A stretch of DNA of 64,000 bases from a virus (IMGVR_UViG_3300042945_001689:44125-108124), one strand, 5' to 3'; numbered from the stretch's first letter, positions 21,121 through 47,937 are shown. Program-made: numbers and translations. Notes: generated from the sequence alone by a model not told the origin.

Positions 21121-21206
21121 GTTTAGACACGGACAAATCGGACATTTTTTGTGTGATCTGTACCACATTTACCCGCGGGCCCCGACACGCCCGACCTCGT
21201 TGTGGG

Positions 21207-21256
21207 TTATCCACATGATGTACATCACATCCAGAATTGAGCGTGAGTTATCCACA
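21207..21256 (+). promoter_or_regulatory. Two DnaA boxes (TTATCCACA at 21207 and 21248)
   Basis: perfect consensus; further boxes at 23806 and 28711, 1-mismatch box at 28722. Confidence 0.7.
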
Positions 21257-21310
21257 TGACCTACATCACATTTCAAAATGTCCGTTTTGGTATGATTACT
21301 GGTCAGTAGA

Positions 21311-21332
21311 TGTCAGACCCCCCTGCTATACT
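21311..21332 (+). promoter_or_regulatory. TGTCAG-N10-TATACT promoter
   Basis: member of 7-copy motif family with fixed spacing. Confidence 0.7.
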
Positions 21333-21387
21333 TCTAGGTATAGAAGGTTGAAAAAGAAGTAAACCCCTTAAAGAAAGGAAGTCCAGA

Positions 21388-21597
21388 ATGACTTCACTAA
21401 ATGTAAATGTAACTACTAAACAATATGAATTGCGTTGGTCTGGATTGCAGACTTCTAGCAATTACACTTCATCTAATTTAGGTGGATTGTTCAATGATGA
21501 AAAGTCTATGAACGACTACTTAGATCAAAAAGTATCTGAGGGTTGGATAATCCTTGAAACTTCCGTTAATGTTTTTGAGCCTTTGGAGGTAAAGTAA
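21388..21597 (+). CDS. Small early protein
   Basis: GAAAGGA SD after promoter. Confidence 0.7.
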   Translation: MTSLNVNVTTKQYELRWSGLQTSSNYTSSNLGGLFNDEKSMNDYLDQKVSEGWIILETSVNVFEPLEVK

Positions 21598-21761
21598 TGA
21601 ACGCTATTTATTCACTAAAATCTATCTGCGGAAAGAATACTTTCTATGTAGATGCATATGATGTAAATTTTAATCCTAATGGTGCAACATGTTGCGATAA
21701 TTGCAAATCAATTTTAATCTGCCGTGAGGCTTGGGACTTTCTCTATAAGGGGGATAAATAA
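21597..21761 (+). CDS. Small Cys-rich early protein
   Basis: hand-translated MNAIYSLKSICG..CCDNC..GDK*; GGAGG SD. Confidence 0.65.
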   Translation: MNAIYSLKSICGKNTFYVDAYDVNFNPNGATCCDNCKSILICREAWDFLYKGDK

Positions 21762-21938
21762 ATGATAAAACTTAAACTAACTACGTTTAATGGTACTACT
21801 AAGGATATTTCTTTCAGTACCTCGTCAGATGTGCGTACATATATTGACGCACTAAAAAATACACTACCTAAATCAGTAGTGTTGCAAGTATCTTGCGATA
21901 CTCTTGGAATATCGGGTCACTTGAAAGGAAACAAATAA
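21762..21938 (+). CDS. Small early protein (paralog of 20430..20606)
   Basis: MIKLKLTTFNG..QVSCDTLGISGHLKGNK*. Confidence 0.7.
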   Translation: MIKLKLTTFNGTTKDISFSTSSDVRTYIDALKNTLPKSVVLQVSCDTLGISGHLKGNK

Positions 21939-22483
21939 TGAACCTTGATGAATATAAACAATTCGTAAAAACAAAACGTCAGATGTCAAAAATTGACGCT
22001 ATGGCAATTCTTGAAAATGCTAAAAAGCAAAATGAACTTATCCACTCTCAAAAAGAAAATGGTGAAAACTAATGAGCCTTGAACTACAAGACACACTGGC
22101 TATATGCCGTCAAATTCGTAACAATGATCGTGATAGTGGAACACACTACTTACTAGGTTATCTATGGGCTAACACTTCAGATAAAGAAAAGAAAAGAATC
22201 TATAAATTGTTCAAGGCAGACCTTGATGAGATTGGAGAAAAATAAAATGGAATTCGTAATTGTGTGCATGCATTGTTGGAAGAATACAAAATATGATGCG
22301 CTATCAGATGCAAGAGGGTTGCCGTGTAATCAATGCGGTAAAATCCTATAGGATGTGTTTAGACAAATAGTCTAAAAAAGCCCGCGGGCCCCTGTCCAAA
22401 ATGTCCGATTTGTGATATGTGATGTAACACACATTGAGAGTTGTCCGATTTGTCTGATAATTACTTGACATAATGTGTGCAAA

Positions 22484-22505
22484 TGTCAGACCCCCCTGCT
22501 ATAAT
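22484..22505 (+). promoter_or_regulatory. TGTCAG-N10-TATAAT promoter
   Basis: near-identical to 21311 copy. Confidence 0.7.
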
Positions 22506-22558
22506 ATAAATATAAAGAAAACAAGCGGTAAAGAAATCCGCTAAGAAAGGTGGTCAAA

Positions 22559-22756
22559 ATGACTACATTAAATAAAACTCAATGTGTGAATGGTAATTCT
22601 CACACCCCTAATCGTAAAGCAATTTCAATAATTGCTCACAATTTCGATTGTTCCGATTACTTTACATTTTGCGAAGTTTGCGAGCAAAACATTTCAGCAT
22701 TCTCATTCTATGATGAGGATCGTGGAGATGTTCTCAGCAAATGGTCAATAGACTAA
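22559..22756 (+). CDS. Small Zn-finger-like early protein
   Basis: CEVC; GAAAGGTGG SD. Confidence 0.65.
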   Translation: MTTLNKTQCVNGNSHTPNRKAISIIAHNFDCSDYFTFCEVCEQNISAFSFYDEDRGDVLSKWSID

Positions 22757-22763
22757 AAGGTCG

Positions 22764-22779
22764 TGTGATTAACCTCACA
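22764..22779. promoter_or_regulatory. CRP/GlxR-type site TGTGA-N6-TCACA
   Basis: perfect consensus. Confidence 0.7.
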
Positions 22780-22817
22780 TTCCAAATGTCCTAAATGTCC
22801 GTTTTTGGATTTGATTA

Positions 22818-22839
22818 TGTCAGTCCAATCTGGTAAGAT
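22818..22839 (+). promoter_or_regulatory. TGTCAG-N10-TAAGAT promoter
   Basis: motif family. Confidence 0.65.
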
Positions 22840-22872
22840 AAATACATAACAAAAAAAGAAAGAGGTGGCACT

Positions 22873-23076
22873 ATGTCAGCCAATGTTTACTCAGTCCAAT
22901 CCCTACTAGTGGGAACCGAATATCAGTCTGCAACCTTAACGGGTAAGATCGTTAGAGCAGAAGCGCACCCTAAAGCCGTATGGTATGATGGTTGCGAAAG
23001 TTATCTCGTAGAAATCCGACCTGAAATCGGATTTAGAAATGCTTATCGCACCATAGCGGTAAAAACTTCTAATTAA
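22873..23076 (+). CDS. Small early protein
   Basis: GAGGTGG SD. Confidence 0.7.
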   Translation: MSANVYSVQSLLVGTEYQSATLTGKIVRAEAHPKAVWYDGCESYLVEIRPEIGFRNAYRTIAVKTSN

Positions 23077-23091
23077 ATAAAATCGAAACAA

Positions 23092-23139
23092 GGGCAGTTT
23101 AGAGAGTGTTCTCGCCCGATGTCGTAAGTAAGAACTCTC
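23092..23139 (-). ncRNA. Divergent antisense copy of the pseudoknot motif
   Basis: GAGAGUUC..GGGCG-A-GAAC(A)CUCUC-UAAAC-UGCCC; same topology, longer loop 1. Confidence 0.4.
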
Positions 23140-23147
23140 ACCAATAT

Positions 23148-23169
23148 TGTCAGTGCCCACTGATATAAT
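23148..23169 (+). promoter_or_regulatory. TGTCAG-N10-TATAAT promoter
   Basis: motif family. Confidence 0.7.
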
Positions 23170-23201
23170 TTAACTCAACTAAAGAATAGGAAATAAAAAC
23201 A

Positions 23202-23408
23202 ATGAAAAAAATAACCCACTCGCTACAATTCGTTACCGAGGTTGATGAAAATCACCCAATAGGAATGCAACTGCTTTCACTTTCACGAGAAATGCAAAAA
23301 GAAATGCTTGAAGGAATGTTAAAAGAACTGGTTGCACCAAAAATTCAACCAATCCTTGACTTTCTTAATGAAGGCAATTCATATGCAATTCTAAAGGTGG
23401 CAGACTAA
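23202..23408 (+). CDS. Small early protein
   Basis: ORF after promoter, AGGA SD. Confidence 0.7.
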   Translation: MKKITHSLQFVTEVDENHPIGMQLLSLSREMQKEMLEGMLKELVAPKIQPILDFLNEGNSYAILKVAD

Positions 23409-23608
23409 TGATGACACGAAAAGACTATGTCGCAACTGCTGAAATTCTAAGCAATTATTTTGCTACATCTATTTTTGATGAGCAGGCAGAAATTTTATTT
23501 GCTGATTTGGTAGATGAATTTTCGCTAATGTTTGAAAGTGATAATCCAAGATTTGACGCAAATAAATTTGCTCTTGCTTGCTATAAAGAAATTGAGGTAA
23601 ATGCGTGA
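23408..23608 (+). CDS. Small early protein
   Basis: MTRKDY..DNPRFD..F..AC; coupled start/stop. Confidence 0.7.
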   Translation: MMTRKDYVATAEILSNYFATSIFDEQAEILFADLVDEFSLMFESDNPRFDANKFALACYKEIEVNA

Positions 23609-23735
23609 ATAGATTTTTAACAACAATCGTTCAACTATTTTTAGCGGGTAGCGTTTTCATTTTATTTAAAATGATGTTACCAATGCTAAAAGAAGATTTT
23701 CAACAAATAAAAAATGATTTAACAAAATAAAAAAA

Positions 23736-23763
23736 ATTCCTAAGCAAGAATAAAAACTGCTTA
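23736..23763 (+). ncRNA. H-type pseudoknot motif, copy 1
   Basis: AUUC-C-UAAGCA-A-GAAU-AAAAAC-UGCUUA; compensatory A-U in P2. Confidence 0.8.
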
Positions 23764-23879
23764 AATTTTGCCCGCGGGCCCCGACACGCCCGACCTCGTT
23801 GTGAGTTATCCACAACTCCTTTACGTGTGGTTAAGATCACACCCCAAAACCTGCAAAACCCCCTTAATGAATTATGAGA

Positions 23880-23901
23880 TGTCAGTCAAATATGCTAGGA
23901 T
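23880..23901 (+). promoter_or_regulatory. TGTCAG-N10-TAGGAT promoter
   Basis: motif family. Confidence 0.65.
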
Positions 23902-23928
23902 TGTATTATTCCAAAGAAAGGAAAACTA

Positions 23929-24123
23929 ATGGGAAACTTGTTTGATAAAATAGGAATTTGCTACACTTGCTATGATGAGGGCGTTATCTTTACTGATATG
24001 GATAGCGATGGATTTATAAATGATTTCTGCGCTGATTGTGAAAAAGGTCAGGTATTTGCTAATGACTATTCAATATGGTATGCTGAAAATGAAATGAACG
24101 AATACACTAAGGAGAACGCATAA
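23929..24123 (+). CDS. Small Zn-finger-like early protein
   Basis: CYTC..CADC; strong SD. Confidence 0.7.
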   Translation: MGNLFDKIGICYTCYDEGVIFTDMDSDGFINDFCADCEKGQVFANDYSIWYAENEMNEYTKENA

Positions 24124-24226
24124 TGACCTACTATGACGACTACTATGAAACTGATACGCCTACTGCCGTAGGTTGCTACTGCAAAATAAATTATCTATGC
24201 TCAGAATGTAAAGGAAGTTACAACTA

Positions 24227-24439
24227 ATGGAATATGAATATCTAATTACCTGCGCCTATGACGGGAACGCTCCGCATTGGGAGCAACGCTATGAAAACGA
24301 ATATGGCGCATGGGAAAACTTTTTCCTATTTACTGATTGGGGAATGGCTGATGAATACTCAACAGTTAATCTTTACACGCCAACTGGCAAATGTTATACA
24401 AAAAACTTTTATCGTAGTGGAATGGTGAGTGTAAAATAA
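24227..24439 (+). CDS. Small early protein
   Basis: 70 aa with SD. Confidence 0.7.
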   Translation: MEYEYLITCAYDGNAPHWEQRYENEYGAWENFFLFTDWGMADEYSTVNLYTPTGKCYTKNFYRSGMVSVK

Positions 24440-24633
24440 TGACACAGGAAAATTTTAAATATAGTTGGGAACGCTATACTATTTGGGATACCCCCGAAGT
24501 TTGGGAAGAACCATGCGGTGATGAAAGGGCTGAATTGAATGGCGTTGTGTCTTGGGAGTTAGAAGATGAAGAGCCATTTATTTCTTTAGAAGAAGATCCA
24601 GAAATGGAAGATTGGTTAATGAGTAATGTTTAA
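24439..24633 (+). CDS. Small acidic early protein
   Basis: very Glu/Asp/Trp-rich; coupled to upstream ORF. Confidence 0.6.
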   Translation: MTQENFKYSWERYTIWDTPEVWEEPCGDERAELNGVVSWELEDEEPFISLEEDPEMEDWLMSNV

Positions 24634-24842
24634 GATGTAAAATATAAAAACCCCCGCGGGCGATGTCCGATTTGTCCAGAATCTCCCAGGATTTGATTTC
24701 TAAGATTATTTATGATATTATTTTTATATGTGGAAAAAAACAAGCGAAGAGTTACGTAGAATACAAGAGTTACGTAGATCTAATGCTGCTACCCCTTTAC
24801 GGGACAAGTCTAAATATTCCCGAAAAAACAAGCATAAGAAAC

Positions 24843-24871
24843 TTGACATTTATCTCCCTGAAAGGTAGAAT
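24843..24871 (+). promoter_or_regulatory. SigA promoter TTGACA-N17-TAGAAT, leaderless for 24878
   Basis: consensus; ATG 6 nt after -10. Confidence 0.8.
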
Positions 24872-24877
24872 ATTAAT

Positions 24878-25606
24878 ATGAACCCAACTCACACCCTGAA
24901 ACGCTCTAATGATAGGAAAGTAACTAATGCTGTCAGTCCTAATGGTAAGACTCCAACAATTGCTAACACCTTCGGACTACCCGCAGGCAAAGAGTACTCC
25001 TGTCCTGGAGAAACCCCTACCTGCAAAAAAGTCTGCTACGCAGGAAAACTTGAAAAGATCTACAAAGGCGTAAAAGCCGTACTATTACATAATTGGGATT
25101 TGCTAAGCAATGCAGATTTTGATACCCAGGTACAATTGATAGATGAAATGATTATTGATTTCAAGTCTGATTGTGTAAAGAAAGACGCTCCTATGCTATT
25201 CCGTATCCACTGGGACGGAGATTTCTTCAATGATCAATACACTCTGGCCTGGAAGACAGTAATTGAAAGACACGAAGATGTTCAATTTTGGGTATACACG
25301 AGAGTAGCAAGCGCTGCTAGGATTCTTAAGGATGTTTCTAATTTAGGATTATATTATTCTACAGACGGCGATAACAAAAATATTGCACAAGGTCTCTCGG
25401 AAGAAGGAATAAAACTAGCATATCTTTCTACTACATTTGCGTTAGGTAAGGAAGATATGCTAAACTTGATAGGTAAGTCAGCCGTCAAGTGTCCTGAGAA
25501 TAATAAAAAGATTCCCCTCATTTCTAAACAGGGGTCAGCGTGTGTTACTTGCGGTCAATGTGTATTTGAGCGTAATAATATCCTATTTTCTAGTACTAAG
25601 AAATGA
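24878..25606 (+). CDS. GP88-family protein (mycobacteriophage gp88-like, Cys-rich)
   Basis: CPG.T..C..VCYA, FRIHWDGDF, YTR, C-terminal CxxCxxC. Confidence 0.75.
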   Translation: MNPTHTLKRSNDRKVTNAVSPNGKTPTIANTFGLPAGKEYSCPGETPTCKKVCYAGKLEKIYKGVKAVLLHNWDLLSNADFDTQVQLIDEMIIDFKSDCVKKDAPMLFRIHWDGDFFNDQYTLAWKTVIERHEDVQFWVYTRVASAARILKDVSNLGLYYSTDGDNKNIAQGLSEEGIKLAYLSTTFALGKEDMLNLIGKSAVKCPENNKKIPLISKQGSACVTCGQCVFERNNILFSSTKK

Positions 25607-25767
25607 GGAACTATGGAAGTCCTAATTGTCCTATTTATCGGTATTGTCGTATTGTTGGCTGGCTTGGGACATAAGTGATTTATCTCACACCAAAACTAGG
25701 CTCTACGATTTGATATTTTCTAGCAACCCTGCTAGAATTGTAATAACAACAAAAGAAAGGAAGCAAA

Positions 25768-25926
25768 ATGGCAAAGTCAGCACTATACAAAGTAGGCGAC
25801 ACCTATACCTCTCAAAAGAGCAAGGTAACAGGAACCATCTTGGAGATTTCTCCAAACTCATCTGGCTCGGTGCGAGTTAAACTAGATGTAGAGGGAAATA
25901 CCCGTTGGACAACTTGGAAGGCATAA
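25768..25926 (+). CDS. Small early protein (52 aa)
   Basis: hand-translated MAKSALYKVGD..RWTTWKA*; GAAAGGA SD. Confidence 0.7.
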   Translation: MAKSALYKVGDTYTSQKSKVTGTILEISPNSSGSVRVKLDVEGNTRWTTWKA

Positions 25927-25952
25927 GCCTTTAGGTTTAGCAAACGCTAACC

Positions 25953-25983
25953 AGACCTGAGCAAGTCTAGGATAAACTGCTCA
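25953..25983 (+). ncRNA. H-type pseudoknot motif, copy 2
   Basis: AGAC-C-UGAGCA-A-GUCU-AGGAUAAAC-UGCUCA. Confidence 0.8.
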
Positions 25984-26013
25984 CCAAACCCCTTACCCGA
26001 AAGGAACCCAAAT

Positions 26014-26436
26014 ATGGCACGACAGAAAGCAATCTCAGTAAAAATTGCAACAAGCAAAGTAATCAAGGCACTAGAAACTCGTCTAGCAGAACTAGAAAAG
26101 AACTATGCCTCACAAGAAGCCAATGAAGCAAAGTATCAGAAGGCTTACAAGAATTGGCAGAAAGAACTACAAGAGTTCGCTATTGCTAATATCAAGAAGG
26201 CAGAAAACTTCCGCACATCATATCGTTCTTGGAATAAGACCTTGAACATTGACTACGACATCATCACAAACGAGGACTCTTTACCAAAAGAGCCTGAGCG
26301 TGATTTTGAGCAACTCCATCAACACAGTTATCGTGAGATGAAAGAGGAAATGGAAAATGCTATCCGTATTCTCAAAATGACAGATGAGGAAGTTGTAAGC
26401 ACATCAACTTACAATGCTATTTCTCGTTATCTTTAA
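26014..26436 (+). CDS. Hypothetical coiled-coil protein
   Basis: 140 aa, strong SD. Confidence 0.8.
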   Translation: MARQKAISVKIATSKVIKALETRLAELEKNYASQEANEAKYQKAYKNWQKELQEFAIANIKKAENFRTSYRSWNKTLNIDYDIITNEDSLPKEPERDFEQLHQHSYREMKEEMENAIRILKMTDEEVVSTSTYNAISRYL

Positions 26437-26483
26437 CAAGATAGGCACACGGATAATTTAATTATCTATACGCCTTAGTTAAA

Positions 26484-26511
26484 TCTCCTGAGTATGAGGC
26501 TAAACTGCTCA
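26484..26511 (+). ncRNA. H-type pseudoknot motif, copy 3
   Basis: UCUC-C-UGAGUA-U-GAGG-CUAAAC-UGCUCA; G-U wobbles fix the + strand. Confidence 0.8.
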
Positions 26512-26568
26512 CCAACTTTCATCTCTGCTAAGCCCCAGGCCATGATGCGTGGGTATGCCTGAGATGAT

Positions 26569-26596
26569 CTTCCTGAGCATGAGGTTAAACTGCTCA
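26569..26596 (+). ncRNA. H-type pseudoknot motif, copy 4
   Basis: CUUC-C-UGAGCA-U-GAGG-UUAAAC-UGCUCA. Confidence 0.8.
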
Positions 26597-26615
26597 TTTT
26601 TGCCCCGCGGGGGAT

Positions 26616-26631
26616 TGTGATAAACATCACA
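26616..26631. promoter_or_regulatory. CRP/GlxR-type site TGTGA-N6-TCACA
   Basis: perfect consensus just after CCCGCGGG. Confidence 0.7.
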
Positions 26632-26674
26632 TTCTTAAAAAATGTCCAGAAACGCCCAATTTAAGATTAGACAA

Positions 26675-26696
26675 TGTCAGCCCTATCCGCTAGAAT
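26675..26696 (+). promoter_or_regulatory. TGTCAG-N10-TAGAAT promoter
   Basis: motif family. Confidence 0.7.
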
Positions 26697-26727
26697 TATA
26701 TTAACAACAACGAAAGGAACAACCCCT

Positions 26728-27021
26728 ATGGCAAATATGAAGAAAATTATGGATGCAACAAATGATGCTATCCATACTAATGAAATTTCAGATGAGGCTT
26801 CAGGTCTTGTAGCAACTATCGCAGAAGGTCTGCCACTTGATGTAATTATCAAAGAGTTATACCAATACTCGCAAGCCTTATCTGCTATGGTACTAACAAA
26901 AGTTTTGCACACCATGTATGATGCCGAAACTATTGAGAACATGATAGATGGCTACCAAGATGAACTTACCGCAGAAATGTTTGATGAGATTGAAAACTAT
27001 CTTCAGAAAGAAGGAAACTAA
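26728..27021 (+). CDS. Hypothetical acidic early protein
   Basis: start moved to ATG 26728 after promoter and SD. Confidence 0.7.
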   Translation: MANMKKIMDATNDAIHTNEISDEASGLVATIAEGLPLDVIIKELYQYSQALSAMVLTKVLHTMYDAETIENMIDGYQDELTAEMFDEIENYLQKEGN

Positions 27022-27022
27022 T

Positions 27023-27424
27023 ATGCCTATTCCAGATAACTCGTGTCTAGTAACTATCAACTCACTAAATGAGGAGATTGCTTTACTAAAATCACAACTA
27101 GGAGATGCTCTTAGTAACTCACAAAGACACTATGAATACTATGAAAAACTGCAAAACTCTATTCGTTATTTCTTTGAGAGCAATCGTAGTGATGCTACTT
27201 GTGAGTTTGACATTGACAATGTAAATGCTTTCCTTGCTGAAAATAGCATTGAACCGCTAAAGCGTGAGTATCGTGTTGAGTTCCGAATTGAAGGAACAAT
27301 TCTTGTGGAAGCAGAAAACGAAGATGAAGCACAAGATATAGTAAATGAACTTGATGTAACGCATTGGACTGCTGAAGTTGAAAATTTTGAAGCAGAAGCA
27401 ACTAATGTAGAAGCAACCTACTAG
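27023..27424 (+). CDS. Hypothetical early protein
   Basis: GAAGGA SD before ATG 27023; VEAENEDEA motif. Confidence 0.7.
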   Translation: MPIPDNSCLVTINSLNEEIALLKSQLGDALSNSQRHYEYYEKLQNSIRYFFESNRSDATCEFDIDNVNAFLAENSIEPLKREYRVEFRIEGTILVEAENEDEAQDIVNELDVTHWTAEVENFEAEATNVEATY

Positions 27425-27442
27425 TTTTTCCGTAGGGGAAAA

Positions 27443-27470
27443 AGTCCTGAGCATGACTAAAAACTGCTCA
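27443..27470 (+). ncRNA. H-type pseudoknot motif, copy 5
   Basis: AGUC-C-UGAGCA-U-GACU-AAAAAC-UGCUCA. Confidence 0.8.
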
Positions 27471-27483
27471 CCACCCGCGGGGG

Positions 27484-27516
27484 TGTGACATTGATCACAG
27501 TGTGTTCTTTATCACA
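27484..27516. promoter_or_regulatory. Tandem CRP/GlxR-type sites
   Basis: TGTGA-CATTGA-TCACA then TGTGT-TCTTTA-TCACA. Confidence 0.7.
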
Positions 27517-27592
27517 TAACGATATTTTAGGATGATTTGACTTTGACTTTGATTTACGATAAAATTAGAATATCAACTGAAAGGATAAAAAT

Positions 27593-28573
27593 ATGGCTCA
27601 TGAAATCGAAATAATCAACGGTGAGGCTTCTTTTGCTTCATTGCGTGAACCTGCGTGGCATGGTTTAGGTACCGTGTTTACAGAAGAGAAAACAACTAGC
27701 GAAATGCTAGAGTTAGCAAATCTGCAAGACTGGAATGTAAGATTAGAAGAGGTCGAGGCTCCTGCTACTCTAACATCAGACAAAAATTATTTCTATGTAG
27801 TACGAAATAATCCCGTAATCGAAAATCAAAACGATATTTTAGGTATTGTTGGAGAACGTTACAATGTATTGCAAAATGAACAACTATTTGATTTTGCAGA
27901 TGCAATGCTAGATGGTGGACGATGGGAAACCGCTGGCTCACTACGAGGTGGACGTGTAGTATTTGGTAGCCTTGCACTAGATCGTGAAACCGTACTAGAC
28001 CCTAATGGCGTTGCAGATAAAATCAACACCTATCTGATAGTCAATACATCACACGATGGTTCTATCTCAATTCAAGCAAGCGTTACCCCCGTACGTGTAG
28101 TGTGCGCTAACACATTGAACTTTGCTTTGCGTAGTGTAAAGCAATCCTTCAAGATTCGCCACACACAAACTGCTAATGGTAAAGTACAATCCGCTAAGAC
28201 TGCTCTAGGTATTGCTAACGCATACATGGACGACTTTAGCGTTATGGCAAACAAGATGATTCAGACTGAATTATCCGCTAAGCAATTCAACGATATTCTT
28301 CTCACCGCTTACCCTAAGCCTGATAAGGATTCTAAGCAAGCCCTAACCAAGTGGACAAATAAAATTGACACTCTCAATGATATTTACACTGGCGAATTCA
28401 ATCACATGATTTCGGGTAATGCGTGGGGCGCTCTTAATGCAATGACTGAACGCATTGACTGGTTCAGAGGTCAAGGTGAAACTAAGTTAGCAGCAGCAAG
28501 TGGTTTTGATGTTGCGACTAATGCAGAAAAAAATCGTTTAATGAAAATCGTAAATGATTTTGTAGCAGCGTAA
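27593..28573 (+). CDS. DUF932 / TIGR03299-type phage-plasmid protein
   Basis: PAWHGLG, ETAGSLRGGR, NTSHDG, RVVCANTL, RHT motifs. Confidence 0.85.
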   Translation: MAHEIEIINGEASFASLREPAWHGLGTVFTEEKTTSEMLELANLQDWNVRLEEVEAPATLTSDKNYFYVVRNNPVIENQNDILGIVGERYNVLQNEQLFDFADAMLDGGRWETAGSLRGGRVVFGSLALDRETVLDPNGVADKINTYLIVNTSHDGSISIQASVTPVRVVCANTLNFALRSVKQSFKIRHTQTANGKVQSAKTALGIANAYMDDFSVMANKMIQTELSAKQFNDILLTAYPKPDKDSKQALTKWTNKIDTLNDIYTGEFNHMISGNAWGALNAMTERIDWFRGQGETKLAAASGFDVATNAEKNRLMKIVNDFVAA

Positions 28574-28577
28574 ATAA

Positions 28578-28606
28578 ATATCCTGAGCATGATATAAAAC
28601 TGCTCA
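28578..28606 (+). ncRNA. H-type pseudoknot motif, copy 6, 3 nt before tRNA-Asp
   Basis: AUAUC-C-UGAGCA-U-GAUAU-AAAAC-UGCUCA. Confidence 0.8.
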
Positions 28607-28609
28607 TCT

Positions 28610-28686
28610 GATTCCATAGATCAATTGGTTAGATCGCCACCCTGTCACGGTGGAGGTTGCGGGTTCAAGTCCCGTTGGAATCGCCA
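28610..28686 (+). tRNA. tRNA-Asp(GTC)
   Basis: cloverleaf; anticodon stem CCACC/GGTGG, TTCAA T-loop, encoded CCA. Confidence 0.95.
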
Positions 28687-28825
28687 AAGGTTGGTGCAAC
28701 ACCCGCGGGGTTATCCACAGGTTATTCACATGATGAACGGTAAATCAAATTTTAAATCTAAAACATACTTTTTCCCTTTATTAAGAAGAGTTGACTTTTT
28801 CCTGGAATCAGGGTAAAATATTAAT

Positions 28826-29044
28826 ATGACCCAAAAAGTTGCAATTTACGAAATGAATTACTCTTGCTCTCCTGGCGGTATTGACTGCTGGGAAGCAACC
28901 ATTCAAGGTTATGGTACTAGTACTACTGCCTCTGACTTTAAAAATGCTGGAGAGGCTCTTAATTGGGTACTTGACAGATACCCTGACGAAATGTTAGAAT
29001 TGGTAGTAACTTCAATTCCTGCCTACGAAAAGGAATATGTATGA
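28826..29044 (+). CDS. Small early protein (leaderless)
   Basis: TTGACT-N17-TAAAAT at 28791-28819, ATG 6 nt later. Confidence 0.7.
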   Translation: MTQKVAIYEMNYSCSPGGIDCWEATIQGYGTSTTASDFKNAGEALNWVLDRYPDEMLELVVTSIPAYEKEYV

Positions 29045-29204
29045 CCCAAACAACCTACAAACCTTATACTATAAATGAACTAGTCATGGCTATCTATGAA
29101 GATAACCTATCACATTTTGAATTTATGGAAAACATGAATGGGGGAGACTGTGATTGTTCTCTCCATAATACTATGAATACTATTGTTGAATACTGGGGAG
29201 AATA

Positions 29205-29480
29205 ATGGGACGTAATCTAGCAGAAGAGTTAGCAAGCAATTCTTTATTGGATGAGATTAAATTAGATAATGCTATAGCGATACACTTACGGGGTAATCAC
29301 TATCCCCCGATTCCTTTGACTATGGTCCAGCCATGTATCGAAGCAATTGACGCATATTGGGATGAGGATTTAGACCATATGATTGATCTGCCAGAGGGCG
29401 TCTTCTATCGTGGTAGTGACAAGGCTCCTGCTTGGGCCATTATTGAATCACATCATCTTGGCGCTTGGTGTGCAGATTGA
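29205..29480 (+). CDS. Hypothetical protein
   Basis: HLRGNHYPP motif; GGAG SD. Confidence 0.75.
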   Translation: MGRNLAEELASNSLLDEIKLDNAIAIHLRGNHYPPIPLTMVQPCIEAIDAYWDEDLDHMIDLPEGVFYRGSDKAPAWAIIESHHLGAWCAD

Positions 29481-29657
29481 GGTGTACCTCATGTGGAAGT
29501 AAGATAACCTTTGAAAGCCAGGATGAAAGAGGATTCTGGTCCTGCCAGGATTGTGGGCAACCTACAGAAGAAGAGGGTTGACCTTATTAAGAAATGCTTG
29601 ACATTTTCCCCAAAACCTGCTAAAATTTAATTACGAACCAAGTAGAAAGAACCCGAA

Positions 29658-29885
29658 ATGAAAACATCAAGACTAGACCCATACTTACAAAAACAAGTTG
29701 AACTAGGCTCATCTGGCATAGACATTATGCATGGAGCATTAAAGACTATTATGCATGAGTTTGAAAACAAAACCTTTGAGGACAAATCATATGAAGAAGG
29801 ATATATGGATTGTCTTGTTGACCTATACAGTTTGACCTACGATATCTCATTTGCTATCATGGATAATGAGAGAAAGGATACGTAA
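29658..29885 (+). CDS. Hypothetical protein
   Basis: follows TTGACA-N17-TAAAAT at 29598. Confidence 0.7.
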   Translation: MKTSRLDPYLQKQVELGSSGIDIMHGALKTIMHEFENKTFEDKSYEEGYMDCLVDLYSLTYDISFAIMDNERKDT

Positions 29886-30045
29886 TGGCAACATATCGTT
29901 TTATGACTGGTACTTGGTATGAGATTACCCTGCCAGATAACAAGGTAGATTTAGAGGGTTATTTCCCTGAAGAGTTACATGATGCATACTTTGATAACTG
30001 TCTACCCGAAGATGTTCAAGTATACGAAGTTGAAGCGGACCATAT

Positions 30046-30240
30046 ATGGGACAATTGATTGAGTATATTAAGATACATCTAATTAGTTTAAGACAAGATT
30101 GGGAAGATGCTATTAATAACATAGACCTAATTGATTCTGAGTACCATCCTTCTGATGATTATTTTGAAGGAGCAATTGAGGCAACAGAGCACCTGTTGTC
30201 AGTGGCAGAAGGTATACTTAATGGTGGAGAGGATAGATAA
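30046..30240 (+). CDS. Hypothetical acidic protein
   Basis: coupled to 30240 ORF. Confidence 0.6.
   Translation: MGQLIEYIKIHLISLRQDWEDAINNIDLIDSEYHPSDDYFEGAIEATEHLLSVAEGILNGGEDR
30197..30218 (+). promoter_or_regulatory. TGTCAG-N10-TATACT promoter (inside upstream CDS)
   Basis: motif family; 21 nt before ATG 30240. Confidence 0.6.
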
Positions 30241-30887
30241 TGCCAAATTGGGTATACAATCAGGTATCTATCAAGGGACCTGAGAATCAGATAGCAGATA
30301 TCAAGGAACAACTTAATCAACCATATACTAGTATTCAAGATAACTACAATCATGAAACTAAAAAATGGGAGAAAAAAGAGTTTGCATATAGTAATCCTAT
30401 ATTTGCATTTTGGAATATCCATCGACCATTAGACATGAAAACATATAATTTGCAAGAAGACCCCAATGCAGATAAAACTAAACTATTTGATGGCAATAAC
30501 TGGTATAACTGGAATGTTCGTGAGTGGGGTACTAAATGGGATGTTGGACTTAGAGACGATGAAAGATTTACTGATACTGAGTTAATAGAAGAGACTAGTG
30601 GTTCATTAGTTTATTCTATACATACCGCTTGGGCTCCCCCTGTTCCTGCCATCCAAAAATTATCTAAGTTTGTGCCTGATTGTATTGTTACTCTTACCTA
30701 TCAAGAAGAGCAAGGCTGGGGTGGCGAGGTAATTTATCTTGATGGCTTGGCTGTTATTGAGAAAGAATACGACTCTCTATGCAATGAGTGCGATGCAGAA
30801 AACACTATGGAATACTGTGAGCATTGCGAAGTTGAGACATGCACTGCTTGCGCCTTTCCTTCCTGTACCCATTTAGTACAGGCATAG
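30240..30887 (+). CDS. DUF1281/YubB ferredoxin-like domain protein with C-terminal Cys cluster
   Basis: MPNW..N, WYNWN..WGTKWD, TAWAPP. Confidence 0.8.
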   Translation: MPNWVYNQVSIKGPENQIADIKEQLNQPYTSIQDNYNHETKKWEKKEFAYSNPIFAFWNIHRPLDMKTYNLQEDPNADKTKLFDGNNWYNWNVREWGTKWDVGLRDDERFTDTELIEETSGSLVYSIHTAWAPPVPAIQKLSKFVPDCIVTLTYQEEQGWGGEVIYLDGLAVIEKEYDSLCNECDAENTMEYCEHCEVETCTACAFPSCTHLVQA

Positions 30888-30949
30888 GTTGACAAACTGC
30901 AGCGGTAACGGTAGAATATATATACAACTAAAACTATGAGAGGATAGCA

Positions 30950-31315
30950 ATGGGAGATAGAACTAATTTTCACTTTAAAGTAAATGAAGACACCTTGACT
31001 TTGTACAGTCACTGGGGTGGTACCTGGCGTAAACAAGATTTGGCTCGTGCACTGAGTGTAGCAATGCCACGAATCCAAATGGGAGATATCGACTATGCAT
31101 TGCGTGTTTGTATCTCACAATTGATTGGAGCAGATTGGAATCAGGAAACTGGTTTTGGTCTACGCATTAATAACCCGCAGGGTGCTGAAGAAGAATATGG
31201 ATTTTTAGAAATCAACTTTAACAATGGCACAGTCCAGGATGATGACATTGTCAAGCCAATCCAGGAATTCATTTCCTACCACTTGACACAAGCAGCAACA
31301 ACTGCTACAATTTAA
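30950..31315 (+). CDS. Hypothetical protein
   Basis: MGDR..LYSHWGG; promoter TTGACA-N17-TAGAAT at 30889. Confidence 0.75.
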   Translation: MGDRTNFHFKVNEDTLTLYSHWGGTWRKQDLARALSVAMPRIQMGDIDYALRVCISQLIGADWNQETGFGLRINNPQGAEEEYGFLEINFNNGTVQDDDIVKPIQEFISYHLTQAATTATI

Positions 31316-31346
31316 TAACCACAACCCTAACCGAAAGGAGCCAGCA

Positions 31347-31511
31347 ATGGCAACTAAGAAAGCAGCAAAAGCAAAGACATACCCATATCTTGAAACTTGG
31401 GACACACGGTATGGCCTCTCCCAACGTGTGGTCCTACGTAAGAACGGCAAGTTTGTAGACAATGTCTCGCTTGACGCTCTTAAGCGAGGCCAACGGGTAG
31501 GCTCTCGCTAA
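31347..31511 (+). CDS. Small basic protein (54 aa)
   Basis: hand-translated MATKKAAKAK..; GAAAGGAG SD; promoter at 31282. Confidence 0.7.
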   Translation: MATKKAAKAKTYPYLETWDTRYGLSQRVVLRKNGKFVDNVSLDALKRGQRVGSR

Positions 31512-31541
31512 ATCAGTGAGGAATGGGTTCCCTCACTAACT

Positions 31542-31584
31542 AGGGGGGCGTTGGGTCTGCGACTTGCGCCCCTCTTTACTTTTT
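31542..31584 (+). terminator. Probable intrinsic terminator
   Basis: AGGGGGGCG..CGCCCCTCT stem plus T-rich tail. Confidence 0.55.
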
Positions 31585-31608
31585 GGTACAATTCAATAAG
31601 GGAGAAAA

Positions 31609-31842
31609 ATGACTAGATTATTTAGACCAACAAGACAGACTAAGGAGGAAAAGGCTGCAGTAGAGATAGGTGACATCCTATCAGACTTTAGACTTGACTT
31701 AGATTCACTTGGTTACTATGTAGCAAGGTCTAACCCCTATGTTATTTATCGTAGGTTTGAGGCTGTTGCGGAATCAGCATTATTAGAACGTGAAGGTTTA
31801 GATGATACAAGAATGGAGAACTACAATGACAGACTTCTATAA
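31609..31842 (+). CDS. Hypothetical protein
   Basis: 77 aa with SD. Confidence 0.7.
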   Translation: MTRLFRPTRQTKEEKAAVEIGDILSDFRLDLDSLGYYVARSNPYVIYRRFEAVAESALLEREGLDDTRMENYNDRLL

Positions 31843-32104
31843 GGCATGTGCTATTCTATCTGAGTTATACATGGGGTATGGAGATGACCCAGAGTTTAGA
31901 GATTTTATAGAATACAATGATATTGGAATACCACTTGCTCACTTTGTAAATGACGGGCTGGTAAGAGAACTTGGCGACTCAGCAAATATCTATATAGAGG
32001 AAACATTCTCACTACTATGTAAGTCACTAGGATACAAGGGTGCTACATATGATTTTGATAATTTAGATGATTTATTAGAAATGGCTCCTAGTAAAGAAGA
32101 GTAA
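31826..32104 (+). CDS. Hypothetical protein
   Basis: FIEYNDIGIPLA; start moved to ATG 31826 (GGAG SD). Confidence 0.7.
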   Translation: MTDFYKACAILSELYMGYGDDPEFRDFIEYNDIGIPLAHFVNDGLVRELGDSANIYIEETFSLLCKSLGYKGATYDFDNLDDLLEMAPSKEE

Positions 32105-32227
32105 GGTTTGGGCAGATCCTCTACTTCCCTGGAGGATCGGCCTGATCGCGGCACCCGCGGGAAACTATATCAAGTGACCGTGGTCCCCATGGCAAATCAT
32201 ATCAAATTGGACATATTGGACAAACCT

Positions 32228-32318
32228 TATTTTCCCAAACCTTATTACGAAGACAATTATATTTTCCCAAAACCATATTACGAACATGATTATATTTTCC
32301 CAAACCCTTATTACGAAA
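32228..32318. repeat. Three ~33-bp tandem repeats (TTTTCCCAAA..TATTACGAA)
   Basis: TATTACGA at 32243, 32276, 32309. Confidence 0.85.
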
Positions 32319-32360
32319 CATTAAAAAAAATCCCAGAAACTTTAGTGTTATAATAGTTTT

Positions 32361-32624
32361 ATGAGTCCAAGAGTCCATTTTGCTAAAGAAATGTATGGTC
32401 CTTATTTCCTAGAATCCAAACACTTTAGTTGTGATTGTGATAAAGATAAGAAGCCTATTCATCCTATACGTAAGTTTATAGATCGTCTCTTTCGTATCCC
32501 CGCCAAAGTAGAGGTCGAGCAGGTCCCTGAGCAGCCCAAGCCAAAGACGTCCAAGCCAGCCACCCAGGAAGAGATTGACGCCTACAATTTTCGGCGGGAA
32601 CAACGTAAACAATCTAATCAATAA
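32361..32624 (+). CDS. Hypothetical protein (near-leaderless)
   Basis: TGTTATAAT just upstream of ATG. Confidence 0.6.
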   Translation: MSPRVHFAKEMYGPYFLESKHFSCDCDKDKKPIHPIRKFIDRLFRIPAKVEVEQVPEQPKPKTSKPATQEEIDAYNFRREQRKQSNQ

Positions 32625-32800
32625 TACCCCTATATAAAACATTACGATACCAAACCTTTTTTCCTGGTTTTCTTTTATTTATCAAACCTTTATATAATTT
32701 TATTACGAAATATTTTAAAATATCCTAAAATTTGTTATCAAATTGTTATACATATTTGGCAACTTGACAAACCTTTATATCTATGATATGGGGGATATGG

Positions 32801-32866
32801 GGTTTGGGATATAAGGTTTGAAGGTTTGATGGTTTGAAGATATAAGGTTTGGAGATAAGAGGTTTG
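32801..32866. repeat. Cluster of six GGTTTG hexamers in non-coding DNA
   Basis: 32801, 32815, 32823, 32831, 32846, 32861; flanked by CAAACC copies. Confidence 0.8.
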
Positions 32867-33084
32867 GCCCCTAGACATTACGACCCCATCTGTCTAAGCG
32901 CTCCATAACCCATTACTCTCCACTTTCCTCCACTATACACCAAACCATACTATCTCAGTAACATTTATTTCATCCAAACCTCCCTATTACAATAGCCTTT
33001 ATAGGTCATATAAGCCTATTTGCGAGGGGATATTAAACACCCAAACCATACTTCTTGGCCATAAAAGGATATATACTTATATGT

Positions 33085-37723: not shown

Positions 37724-38386
37724 ATGTTAACTAAAAATAGTTTTATTGGATATGAAGTAGAAGAGCCTATTGCAAATGTTTTTATTATTAAAAATTTTTT
37801 ATCTGACACAGAACAAAAAATATTATTAGATTATGTTAAATCTTTGTCTCAAGAGGATTGGGAACATGAGTATCGTGAAAATTTAAAAAAGTTTTGTTTA
37901 GTAAAATTTGGCACAGATGATGTACAAAAATTAGTAAAAGAGGGAAAGTTTGAAGTTACAGAAAATTGGAGCGATAAAAATTTTCATCTTGTTAATAATG
38001 GAACTTCAGCAGTTAAAAAAATATGTTTATCTTTAACTGAAATTATTAATACTTTTTTACCAGAAGATATAGAAATGAGAGGCCCAGGAACAGCACAAAG
38101 GCAGTATGCTGGTGTTCCACTTACTGCACATTACGACCAATACACTGATCCATCAATAGAATATGCAGCAATTATTTATTTAAATGACGACTACATTGAT
38201 GGAGAATTATTTTTTCCAAACAAAACTTTTGAAATTAAGCCATTATCAAAATCGTTAGTTATTTTTCCTGGAACAGAAGAGTTTACTCATGGAGTAAAGG
38301 CTCCTGGAGAAGGACCAATAAGATATGTTTTGCCTTCTTTTATCTCTAAAAAAGAATTTTATAATGATGGAAAATATTATGTATGA
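37724..38386 (+). CDS. 2OG-Fe(II) oxygenase, prolyl 4-hydroxylase-like
   Basis: HYD, YLNDDYIDGELFF, HGV..RY. Confidence 0.88.
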   Translation: MLTKNSFIGYEVEEPIANVFIIKNFLSDTEQKILLDYVKSLSQEDWEHEYRENLKKFCLVKFGTDDVQKLVKEGKFEVTENWSDKNFHLVNNGTSAVKKICLSLTEIINTFLPEDIEMRGPGTAQRQYAGVPLTAHYDQYTDPSIEYAAIIYLNDDYIDGELFFPNKTFEIKPLSKSLVIFPGTEEFTHGVKAPGEGPIRYVLPSFISKKEFYNDGKYYV

Positions 38387-38416
38387 AATTAATGAAAACA
38401 TTGATAAAACAATAAA

Positions 38417-38965
38417 ATGTTTTTAACGCTTACAACATATCCAAGATCTGGGCAACACTTTTTAAAAGAGCATCTAGAACAAAGATTTTTTTTAGAAAAC
38501 TTTAAATATACCCACGAAGAAGAAGAAAATAAAGAATGTACAACAATAACAATAATAAGAAATCCGTTAGAATCAATAGCATCTTGGGTGGCTATGCAAA
38601 ATTATTATGACAAAAAAACAAATCACTTTTTAATAATCAAAAATATTAAATTTTGTCAAGCAAAATATAACAAATTTTATAAATATATTTTATCAAATGT
38701 AGATATAATTATTGATTATAATTATTTAAATTCAAACACTGAAGACATAATACAATATATAGGACAAAAAATAAAAAATGTTCCAAACAACAATAACGTT
38801 GTGCTAAACATTAAAGATGAACCTGATAGAAAACACATAGTCTCTTCAAAAAAAAATCAAGAATATGATTTTATTTTAAATATAACAAAAAAAATTGATA
38901 TGAAAAATGAATTTGAACTATACAATTTAGCACTTAAAAAATCTTACCCTAATTTTATTTTATAA
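38417..38965 (+). CDS. Sulfotransferase-like protein
   Basis: TYPRSG (5'-PSB-like) and IIRNP..S..S (3'-PB-like). Confidence 0.65.
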   Translation: MFLTLTTYPRSGQHFLKEHLEQRFFLENFKYTHEEEENKECTTITIIRNPLESIASWVAMQNYYDKKTNHFLIIKNIKFCQAKYNKFYKYILSNVDIIIDYNYLNSNTEDIIQYIGQKIKNVPNNNNVVLNIKDEPDRKHIVSSKKNQEYDFILNITKKIDMKNEFELYNLALKKSYPNFIL

Positions 38966-39487
38966 CTATTTTTCTGGACAACAGTTGAATGAATCTAACT
39001 GTACTGCAGTAGAACGATCTGTTCCAAAAGACAACATTGCAGATTTAGTTGCTGGAACACAGTTAGGTACTGGTTTTCCATCTTTACCTGGCTTCATGCC
39101 ACGTTGCACATAACCCTCCCAACATGGGGCAGCCTTTTCAATTCCAAACACATCAGCAAACAAAGCCTTGTTTCTTTCACGTTCTGCAATTCTGCGAGAC
39201 CAAGAAAATCCTGCATCTCCGCCCCAAGCATCCCACATAATACGACCATTAGATGGATTTGACGTGTTATAAAAATCTTTACCTTTTTTATCTACTTCAT
39301 GACGAGAAAAAAAAGAATACATGCGCTTTACTGTATCTAAAGATAATGCTCTTCCAGCAACAATGTCAGTTGCTCTACCCCAGCCTACAGGTGTACCAGC
39401 ACCAGTTGCTTTTCCTTCTTCTTTCCATTTAAGCGCTCTACGAGCAGCAGCCTTCATGCCAGACGTTGGGCTATAGGTATCAGCCAT
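38966..39487 (-). CDS. Conserved phage protein
   Basis: RMYSFFSRH, WDAWGG and CWEGY..VPNCVP modules. Confidence 0.65.
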   Translation of the reverse strand: MADTYSPTSGMKAAARRALKWKEEGKATGAGTPVGWGRATDIVAGRALSLDTVKRMYSFFSRHEVDKKGKDFYNTSNPSNGRIMWDAWGGDAGFSWSRRIAERERNKALFADVFGIEKAAPCWEGYVQRGMKPGKDGKPVPNCVPATKSAMLSFGTDRSTAVQLDSFNCCPEK

Positions 39488-39616
39488 TTTTCTTCTCCTT
39501 TGGTTTACCAGGCGTATATGGCTCTACACGAGACTTTATACGACCATCCTTAGTCATACGAACAATCCATCCATCTTTTATCTGCATTGGATTAAATGCA
39601 TATTTTGATTTCTTCA

Positions 39617-40177
39617 TTATTTAGCAAAACCTCTAGGATCAAACATGCTATTATCCCAAATAGACTTTGTAACTTTTTCTGAACTATATGTTCCACCCCT
39701 ACGCTTATATTCTTGAACTACCCAAGAATTAGCAACAGCGCTTGGATACACATCAAATTTATCTTTTGCTGCTTGCACAACTCTAGCATAAAGTTGTGGA
39801 TTTGATGGTCTTGATCCACCACTTCTTGGTTTAATGAAATCACCATAATTTGGTTTTTCTGCTTTACCAATTGAATTGTCATATGCATCCATGCCTGATC
39901 CTTCTTTATCGTCTTCCATTGAATTATTCTCCATATCTATTACTTTTGCATCATTGTGCATCATTCCAATACTATAAGCGGTTGGTTCCCACTTACCATC
40001 TTCTTCTTTATAAATTCTGACTGACATTGCTGGGTTCTCTGGTGGCATTGACTCAAGAGCGTACTCAGATCCAGGAGTTCCTAGTGTTCCGCCTTCTATC
40101 ATTATATGTTCAACAACTCCATGAATAATACCTTCTGTAGTTTTACCCATAACGAAATTGCCTTCAGTAATATGCAT
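39617..40177 (-). CDS. Hypothetical phage protein
   Basis: C-terminal LY.RV..AK.KF.VYPSA.AN.W..EYKRRGG module. Confidence 0.65.
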   Translation of the reverse strand: MHITEGNFVMGKTTEGIIHGVVEHIMIEGGTLGTPGSEYALESMPPENPAMSVRIYKEEDGKWEPTAYSIGMMHNDAKVIDMENNSMEDDKEGSGMDAYDNSIGKAEKPNYGDFIKPRSGGSRPSNPQLYARVVQAAKDKFDVYPSAVANSWVVQEYKRRGGTYSSEKVTKSIWDNSMFDPRGFAK

Positions 40178-40229
40178 AACTATAATTATACCAGTTTTTC
40201 TGGTATACTATTATAGTTGAAAGGTAATA

Positions 40230-41935: not shown

Positions 41936-41937
41936 AA

Positions 41938-45273: not shown

Positions 45274-45294
45274 AACATCTCCAAAATAATATGA

Positions 45295-45316
45295 GGCAGA
45301 CTAATTAAAGTCTGCC
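45295..45316. terminator. Hairpin downstream of holin
   Basis: GGCAGACT/AGTCTGCC 8-bp stem. Confidence 0.5.
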
Positions 45317-45333
45317 CCACACTTATTAATATA

Positions 45334-45618: not shown

Positions 45619-45724
45619 TTACTCACCTCTTTCTATTATTATTATACACTAAAACTAATAAGTAAAATTTTTTTTATTTCTAATTTGTTTTTTTAATTTA
45701 ATCTTATTTATTAGTTTTTTTATT

Positions 45725-47914: not shown

Positions 47915-47937
47915 GATTAAACCTATCTCTTAGTATT

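Follow-up and report, generated by a model that had tools for sequence, protein, structure and literature searches.

Dispersed operator-like repeats and terminator-promoter cassettes are already known from the early regions of phages, and they provide the closest comparison for the element considered here, the short word CCCGCGGG, which recurs between the early genes of a virus represented by the 108,124-bp IMG/VR record IMGVR_UViG_3300042945_001689 (99% complete, 34.9% G+C); bases 44125-108124 of this record, a stretch of 64,000 nucleotides, were analysed and are called the window. In the Cluster A mycobacteriophages (e.g., L5 and Bxb1), the stoperators follow a genome-specific consensus that tracks repressor divergence and defines specificity groups (PMC6550527, PMC9283540). 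The word resembles the stoperators in that many copies of one short site lie in the short intergenic spaces of an actinobacteriophage, and in that its genome-specific consensus was found to diverge between relatives. However, stoperators are asymmetric 13-bp sites that are oriented with transcription, distributed genome-wide, and bound by a known monomeric repressor in a temperate phage, whereas the word is a dyad of 6-10 bp that is restricted to the early region, stands between units, and, in its asymmetric variants, occurs in both orientations; moreover, unlike in the stoperator phages, no helix-turn-helix (HTH) immunity repressor, integrase, or parABS system was found here. The conserved inverted repeats (CIR operators) of Streptomyces phage phiC31, reportedly described by Ingham et al. 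in 1994 (Nucleic Acids Res 22:821), are said to be highly conserved repressor-operator copies between the genes of the early region; they differ from the present word in that they are reportedly of ~17 bp and belong to a temperate phage whose repressor, the product of gene c, is known.

The Cluster O mycobacteriophages carry 17-bp palindromes (TGTTCGG-N3-CCGAACA), the reader and function of which are not known (PMC4351075). These repeats are similar to the word in being invariant dyads, mostly intergenic and denser in the non-structural arm, of actinophages without an integrase (PMC4351075); however, they are present in more than 30 copies genome-wide, about a third of which lie in coding sequence, their half-sites are 3 bp apart, and all five members share the same sequence with no swapping reported, whereas the present word is swapped between relatives. 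In T4-type phages, the PeSL cassettes, which are modules of a promoter and a stem-loop, take part in gain, loss, and shuffling (PMC2839356). Here, too, terminator and promoter modules recur and partition an early region that is plastic and made up of small accessory genes, and a hairpin, boxes, and a promoter stand between small ORFan cassettes, albeit in a looser unit of 100-230 bp. Nevertheless, PeSLs are defined by promoter and stem-loop and by homologous exchange, and they hold no separate short genome-specific palindrome; at the same time, unlike in PeSLs, most of the breakpoints found here lie away from the word. An integron relies on the IntI tyrosine recombinase, promoterless cassettes, and folded attC sites of 57-141 bp, whereas the present cassettes have their own promoters and an 8-bp word, and no integrase is among the listed Pfam matches. 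Lastly, a Type II restriction-modification target is a palindrome of 4-8 bp, and the word is like it in its CCGCGG core and in the 6-bp cores seen in relatives. What is new is a minimal dyad word of 6-10 bp that is uniform per genome and swapped between close relatives with symmetric co-variation; the uncultured family that shows it is very large, and no reader can be recognised in it.

The word is a perfect 8-bp palindrome that occurs eight times in the window (21172-32161; sites s1 to s8 from left to right, Table 1) and has no other copy in the whole record, which places all eight copies within 11 kb of 108 kb. By chance, 0.03-0.09 copies are expected, and dinucleotide-preserving shuffles gave 0.03, with a maximum of 1. 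Every CCGCGG of the genome falls inside the eight sites, as do 8 of the 18 CGCG; just five one-mismatch variants of CCCGCGGG exist genome-wide, and the G/C runs of at least 8 nt are almost all the word sites themselves. An earlier reading of the window from sequence only had noticed an all-GC 8-mer occurring eight times in 11 kb and not elsewhere in the window; the genome-wide count confirms this, extends it to the complete record, and shows a motif that is clearly not evenly spread. The same sequence-only reading described the sites as always intergenic, which holds in the sense that the open reading frames (ORFs) overlapping them are only frames of 39-81 amino acids (aa) with no family match or independent homolog support. 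Its further point, that keeping a palindrome with a SacII site is unexpected, carries little weight, because composition predicts only ~3 CCGCGG.

The loci of related phages, designated by L and G numbers, were collected through two anchors, namely DUF932 (19 loci) and GP88 (80 of at least 589 matches), and the family amounts to at least 589 viral contigs. The absence of CCCGCGGG from all 19 DUF932-anchored loci led to the finding that the word is swapped: each relative has its own over-represented short word, which is spaced at ~1 kb, uniform within the genome, and present at 10 to 100 times the chance expectation. The words seen among relatives include CCGCGG, CCCGGGGG, CCCATGGG, CACATGTG, GGGGCGCCCC, GGGACGTCCC, GAACGTTC, and CGTACG. 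For instance, five copies of CCCGGGGG occur in L001 (in a single orientation), five of CCCATGGG in L231, four of CACATGTG in L233, six of GGGCGCCC (the core of GGGGCGCCCC) in L275, eight of GACGTCCC (part of GGGACGTCCC) in L307, six of GAACGTTC in L010, six of CGTACGGC in L008, 12 of CGGGCGCCCG in L011, six of GGGGCCGG in L005, eight of GGGCGTC in L006, three of TTGTCGACAA in L264, and two of GGGGTACCCC in L004, on both sides of DUF932. In all four genomes examined whole, the word is confined to an early region of ~6-13 kb; thus, 12 of 14 copies of GGGCGCCC lie within 11 kb in G001, 6 of 6 copies of GGGGCCGG within 9 kb in G002, and 8 of 9 copies of GGGCGTC within 6.4 kb in G003.

Most of these words are perfect palindromes of 8-12 bp, and their cores are without exception classical 6-bp palindromes of the Type II type (CCGCGG, CCCGGG, CCATGG, ACATGT, GGCGCC, GACGTC, GGTACC, CGTACG, AACGTT, and GTCGAC). 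Some of them (CACATGTG, TTGTCGACAA, and GAACGTTC) are not GC-rich, so it is symmetry and not composition that is conserved. Where words are asymmetric, they are present in both orientations within co-directional units (L006, L234, L237, and L307), which argues for reading at the DNA level and against an RNA element. A relative closer than the first 19 loci, R2, was recovered by a metagenome scan with a 20-mer and pieced together from three overlapping metagenome contigs; it is 85-93% identical to the window and has five sites, of which three read CCCGCGGG and the others GCCGCGGC and GCCGCGGG, so that what stays invariant is a CCGCGG core flanked by G/C. A scan of viral contigs with CCCGCGGG-N0-8-TGTCCG returned mostly chance matches in GC-rich phages and was not useful.

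At orthologous junctions, the flanks can be aligned and the word is exchanged. The junction before the GP88 cassette (s4) reads CCCGCGGG in the window phage, GCCGCGGG in R2, CCCGGGGG in L001, GGGGCCGGGGG in L230, GCCCATGGGC in L232, TCACATGTGA in L233, GGCCCAGGGGCC in L235, and GGGGCGTCC in L006, and across relatives its order stays the same, with a conserved hairpin followed by the word and by a conserved TGTCCGATTTGT box. Similarly, the junction after tRNA-Asp (s7) reads CCCGGGGG in L001, GCCCATGGGC in L231, CACATGTG in L233, CCCGTGGG in L235, GCCCCGGGGC in L237, and GGGGCGCCCC in L275, and the junction before DUF932 (s6) has a different word in each of 10 relatives; since automatic word extraction was noisy before DUF932, it was used for the post-tRNA anchor only. 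The trio L231, L233, and L235 is 82-91% identical overall, and each member has its own word at all three junctions aligned. Between L231 (CCCATGGG) and L233 (CACATGTG), the difference is a symmetric double substitution, C2-to-A with G7-to-T, while L235 reads CCCNNGGG, CCCAGGGG (its reverse complement elsewhere), or CCCGTGGG at the aligned junctions. The repetition of the symmetric double change at independent sites shows that the dyad symmetry is under selection and that a single specificity governs all the sites of a genome. Moreover, the flanks of the eight sites in the window are mostly unrelated, the s1-s3 pair excepted, and gene conversion alone therefore cannot keep the 8-mer identical.

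On this basis, CCCGCGGG is tentatively interpreted as an operator-like site for a co-evolving, probably dimeric, phage-specific reader, an interpretation that is given a little less than an even chance of being right. The position of the word, its exclusivity, its uniformity within a genome, its replacement between genomes, and the preserved dyad symmetry are observed; we infer that the word has a protein reader, that this reader is a phage product, and how it acts. The word occupies the only stretch between early units that is probably left untranscribed, with the hairpin or tRNA that ends one unit just behind it and the boxes and promoter of the next immediately ahead. A protein bound there would act on all marked junctions together, either by shut-off or other co-regulation of the early units or by setting a boundary between them. 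Word and reader would drift together, leaving related phages with different and mutually exclusive specificities, a route of divergence that may be likened to the immunity groups that arise from repressor/stoperator pairs in the Cluster A mycobacteriophages. Sites for a phage protein were among the options offered by the sequence-only reading, and this option is now favoured by the uniformity, dyad symmetry, and swapping of the words at orthologous junctions; its counterpart, a gene for the reader, did not emerge from searches with Pfam, PHROG, and ParB, HTH, and ribbon-helix-helix (RHH) models, and a novel fold is possible.

That missing gene is one of several points that weigh against such a reader. 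No DNA-binding PHROG is found among 30 small early ORFs, and no DNA methylase, restriction enzyme, or integrase is among the listed Pfam matches of 138 ORFs. A contiguous palindrome of 6-8 bp is short for an HTH dimer and would be a better match for a reader of the beta-ribbon or enzyme type. The words of L235 and L001 are less uniform than others, and in R2 invariance is limited to the 6-bp core. The word stands 84, 116, 122, and 151 nt from the -10 element, distances that show no helical phasing to the promoter and are unusual for a classical repressor or activator site. Words are found at ~8 of the ~16 intergenic gaps of the region, and the gaps without one include four strong sigma70-like promoters and one hairpin; since about half of the gaps have none, the word is a separable element. 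The early protein P0001 (140 aa), present in all relatives with orthologs in ~78 loci, was considered as the reader, as it is a divergence outlier with 57% identity between phages whose neighbouring genes share 90-98%. However, its N-terminus (KAISVKIATxKVIKALE) is invariant across word classes and therefore cannot set the word specificity, while the remainder is coiled-coil-like and fast-evolving; P0001 might instead have a conserved box as its target. In a second trio (L275, L307, and L300), mosaicism was too strong for this comparison, and no outlier emerged. Targeted searches of the genome with ParB_N and RHH_1 returned no match, and the sole trace of HTH_3 lies in a 190-aa ORF beside a Cas4-like gene, which was rejected as a repressor when it proved to be a RuvC-like resolvase.

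A bolder proposal, which is rather unlikely, would extend the reader to the family as a whole: a large uncultured family of freshwater actinophages would possess a minimal, re-assignable dyad 'address' of 8-10 bp at the boundaries of its early units and a new kind of small dimeric reader (possibly beta-ribbon or enzyme-derived) that belongs to no family detected so far. The two would co-diversify into many specificity groups that exclude one another, and phages that are apparently lytic and compete for the same hosts would thereby have a code of immunity or incompatibility.

The coordinates of the word and its surroundings are collected in Table 1. The word lies 16-50 nt past the preceding stop codon or tRNA, s5 being an exception at 168 nt, and ~3-16 nt from the hairpin or tRNA, usually 3-9 nt after a hairpin and often with a T- or A-tract between. 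The sequence-only reading had proposed a usual order of gene end, hairpin, word, factor boxes, and promoter. This order is followed at s2, s3, s5, and s6; at s7 the hairpin is replaced by tRNA-Asp, s8 has a different hairpin, s4 has an A-tract only and no hairpin, and s1 is placed in the gap between divergent promoters. At four junctions, the hairpin is the conserved CCUGAGCA..UAAAACUGCUCA; in its six copies (window 23738-28606; CCUGrrCA..UAAAACUGyyC), the stem covaries and the loop is kept across the window phage, R2, L001, L002, and L004. The copy at 25957-25983 is followed by no word, so that hairpin and word are separable, and in L232-L235 a GCCC-UUCG-GGGC tetraloop hairpin replaces the conserved one. 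The word was rejected as a terminator stem, given that folding of all eight junctions paired the 8-mer with a different partner each time and gave no consistent RNA pairing partner. In L011 (1879-13049), every word precedes a GC hairpin that shows compensatory changes (GGCC-ca-GGCC vs GCGC-ga-GCGC), and the hairpin in turn precedes GCTGTCAAG, which resembles the 3' half of the L5 stoperator.

Boxes resembling the sites of host factors begin 1-4 nt past the word, or a few tens of nt past it for the DnaA boxes at s1 and s3. CRP/GlxR-like boxes are present at s1, s5, and s6, perfect DnaA boxes at s1, s3, and s7, and TGTCCGATTTGT boxes at s1, s2, and s4, with GACACGCC as a further box type. Since CRP/GlxR-like and DnaA boxes adjoin the words, the arrangement suggests that host factors act at the early promoters. 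The promoters after the words are of the TGTCAG-N10-TAnnnT type or sigma70-like. It was also correctly noted in the first reading that two boundaries share 43/44 bp: these are s1 and s3, and s1 carries a 32-nt box block identical to that of s3, inserted directly after the word, past a shared 12-mer. In R2, the ortholog of s3 retains CCCGCGGG, whereas the position of s5 has no word and an s5-like module is found at the s6 position instead.

Table 1. Sites of the word and other features of the early region and its surroundings (window coordinates unless marked as genome)
Feature	Position	Strand	Description
s1	21172..21179		CCCGCGGG in divergent promoter gap, left edge of early region; CRP-like TGTGA-N6-CCACA ends 4 nt upstream; GACACGCC box and two DnaA boxes downstream
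s2	22381..22388		30 nt past stop at 22351; hairpin TTTAGAC..GTCTAAA and A-tract before; TGTCCGATTTGT boxes at 22402 and 22442 downstream
s3	23771..23778		41 nt past stop at 23730; conserved hairpin (~23738-23763) and AATTTTG before
s4	24653..24660		20 nt past stop at 24633; 3 nt ahead of TGTCCGATTTGT
s5	26604..26611		hairpin 26573-26596 and TTTTTGC before; CRP-like box 4 nt downstream
s6	27474..27481		upstream of DUF932 gene; hairpin and CCA before; CRP-like box 2 nt downstream
s7	28702..28709		15 nt after tRNA-Asp; 1 nt ahead of DnaA box
s8	32154..32161		right edge of early region; different hairpin before; AAGGTTTG-type iterons after
tRNA-Asp	28610..28686	+	closes DUF932 unit where hairpin would stand
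Conserved hairpin, example	27447..27470	+	further copies end at 23763, 25983, 26511, 26596, 28606
TGTCCGATTTGT box	24664..24675	+	kept across relatives with differing words
CRP/GlxR-like boxes	21152-21167, 26616-26631, 27484-27499		TGTGA-N6-TCACA
Perfect DnaA boxes	21207, 21248, 23806, 28711		TTATCCACA; the genome's only four
Promoter after word, example	26675..26696	+	TGTCAG-N10-TAGAAT; same layout at 22484-22505, 23880-23901
Promoters after words	27537-27571, 28791-28819		sigma70-like
DUF932 gene	27593-28573		mosaic
P0001	26014-26436		early protein, 140 aa
46-aa frame	24728-24868		basic
52-aa frame	25768-25926		
Iteron array	32103-33000		AAGGTTTG/CAAACCTT, ~ten iterons
Glycosyltransferase cluster	~38000-56000		
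Recombination genes (L020)	genome 1475-5559	-	

An improbable alternative dispenses with a dedicated reader and regards the word as a cis-acting boundary. Where the terminator hairpin is weak and U-poor, a stable short duplex immediately behind it would slow RNA polymerase and thereby aid termination or insulation, while duplication and gene conversion of junction modules would keep the copies alike. This alternative is consistent with the place of the word ~3-13 nt past the hairpin or tRNA, in many cases with a T- or A-tract in front, which is where the downstream duplex lies during hairpin folding, with the many words embedded in G/C runs of 8-14 nt, with the heterogeneous G/C runs that L001 has at orthologous places, and with the recent copy event that links s1 and s3. 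However, CACATGTG, TTGTCGACAA, and GAACGTTC are not GC-rich; a clamp would tolerate G-to-C swaps, yet eight of eight sites are identical amid unrelated flanks, and a symmetric double substitution at every aligned site would be unexpected. At the same time, s1 and s4 have no hairpin to follow, and one hairpin has no word behind it.

Likewise improbable is the proposal of the sequence-only reading that the words are recombination joints. They would then be microhomologies or crossover cores for exchanging, duplicating, and losing expression cassettes, similar to PeSLs or to the core sites of a site-specific recombinase, and uniform because the partners must be compatible. Cassette content does differ strongly between the window phage, R2, and L001; a mosaic switch, at which the DUF932 block falls from ~89% to 70% identity, lies 3 nt from s6, an indel in L001 ends ~15 nt from a word, a module of the s5 type stands at the s6 boundary in R2, and the box block of s1 is that of s3 and begins right after the shared 12-mer. 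Moreover, genes for RecA, a Cas4-like nuclease, and a RuvC-like resolvase are present in the phage, and the PeSLs are a documented precedent (PMC2839356). However, alignment of relatives showed synteny breakpoints to be largely unrelated to the words: of ~18 breakpoints between the window and R2, most fall at ordinary gene borders 150-630 nt away (e.g., 21401, 22765, 23012, 23201, and 24341), just four lie within 70 nt of a word (3, 44, 60, and 69 nt), and s4 is located inside an uninterrupted conserved block of 2.1 kb. In addition, 8 nt is too short for RecA-type exchange, the flanks are not inverted arms of the recombinase type, and no integrase, resolvase, or HUH enzyme is among the listed Pfam matches. 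Cassette shuffling is thus not supported as the main role of the word; recombination at the junctions is a real by-product, as with PeSLs (PMC2839356), and not the best primary function.

The word may also be viewed as the target of a sequence-specific enzyme, from the phage or the host strain, that restricts, nicks, or methylates DNA in the manner of a Type II system, which would place programmed nicks, cuts, or epigenetic marks at the unit boundaries, though this is quite improbable. All cores have the form that such an enzyme would recognise, and the specificities of restriction-modification systems typically differ between close relatives. Restriction-site purging looks strong in this family: CCGG is absent from the genome where ~99 are expected by composition, AGCT occurs 11 times against ~300 expected, the same absence and near-absence are seen in R2, L002, L006, L008, and L010, and in L001 CCGG persists solely within the words. 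Nevertheless, no DNA methylase or restriction enzyme is among the listed Pfam matches, a nick in each strand of a palindrome would sever the genome, and the fixed place beside the regulatory boxes would be left unexplained. In G001, 11 copies of the GGCGCC core lie beyond the early region; the core is thus not harmful in general in that genome, which showed no overall avoidance of the hexamer. If the words were enzyme targets instead, the family would be deliberately keeping restriction-type sites in genomes that otherwise purge them.

Self-pairing, in which self-complementary copies within one RNA or single-stranded DNA molecule pair like retroviral dimerisation palindromes and loop out the cassettes, is very improbable. 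In its favour, what the words conserve is their self-complementarity, compensatory changes are symmetric, and asymmetric words are found in both orientations on one strand. However, the words are probably poorly transcribed, as they stand past a likely terminator and ahead of the next promoter, the five CCCGGGGG copies of L001 are in one orientation only, 8 bp makes a weak long-range interaction, and folding gives no support. A host regulator site was also rejected: CCCGCGGG has 4 copies in one and 1 in the other of two acI genomes of 1.3-1.4 Mb, which may not be the true host, and this rarity argues against a common host regulon site. T5-type phages make strand-specific nicks at a consensus and have a first-step-transfer stop signal near the genome end that enters first. 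Staged DNA entry, another option raised by the first reading, gains no support here: in a relative with terminal repeats (94,728 bp), the words span 60-69 kb, which leaves ~25 kb to the nearer contig end.

By profile searches, the phage encodes a DnaE-type polymerase, DnaB, DnaG, RecA, a class II ribonucleotide reductase, a portal, and a capsid protein. Because the genome also encodes WhiB, and because the best full-length relatives of its PstS-like protein are in Candidatus Planktophila and Nanopelagicaceae, gene content makes an actinobacterium of the freshwater acI type the likely host. Among GenBank phages, no close kin was found apart from a tRNA match. The 11-kb early region holds ~45 small plus-strand ORFs, nearly all of them ORFans, with the exception of GP88 (PF17338), DUF932, and a DUF1281_C protein. 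Two frames in it, of 46 and 52 aa, are conserved at 97-98% in R2 and 89-96% in L001, and, being far better conserved than the longer ORFs that overlap them, are probably real genes. The DUF932 gene is 68% identical to that of R2 and 85% to that of L001, while the adjacent genes rank in the opposite order, the switch being at the s6 junction. The iterons directly past the last word may form a replication origin, and the same iteron occurs 17 times in L002. Farther to the right, a cluster of glycosyltransferases with an FkbM methyltransferase, APS kinase, nucleotidyl transferase, HAD hydrolase, and carbamoyltransferase may have a role in glycan modification of the virion or the DNA. The recombination genes on the minus strand (L020) comprise the RuvC-like resolvase (190 aa), a NinG-like protein, a Cas4/PD-(D/E)XK nuclease, and RecA.

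If the co-evolving reader is real, the family (at least 589 contigs) would be a natural series of matched short words and binding specificities, in which single-base and symmetric double changes at every junction aligned would display the stepwise re-assignment of DNA recognition. The series may also help to explain dispersed palindromes in other actinophages, e.g., those of Cluster O, which have long lacked an explanation. For the abundant lake phages of acI-type actinobacteria, it could reveal how early genes are timed or insulated, and how related lytic phages escape cross-regulation.

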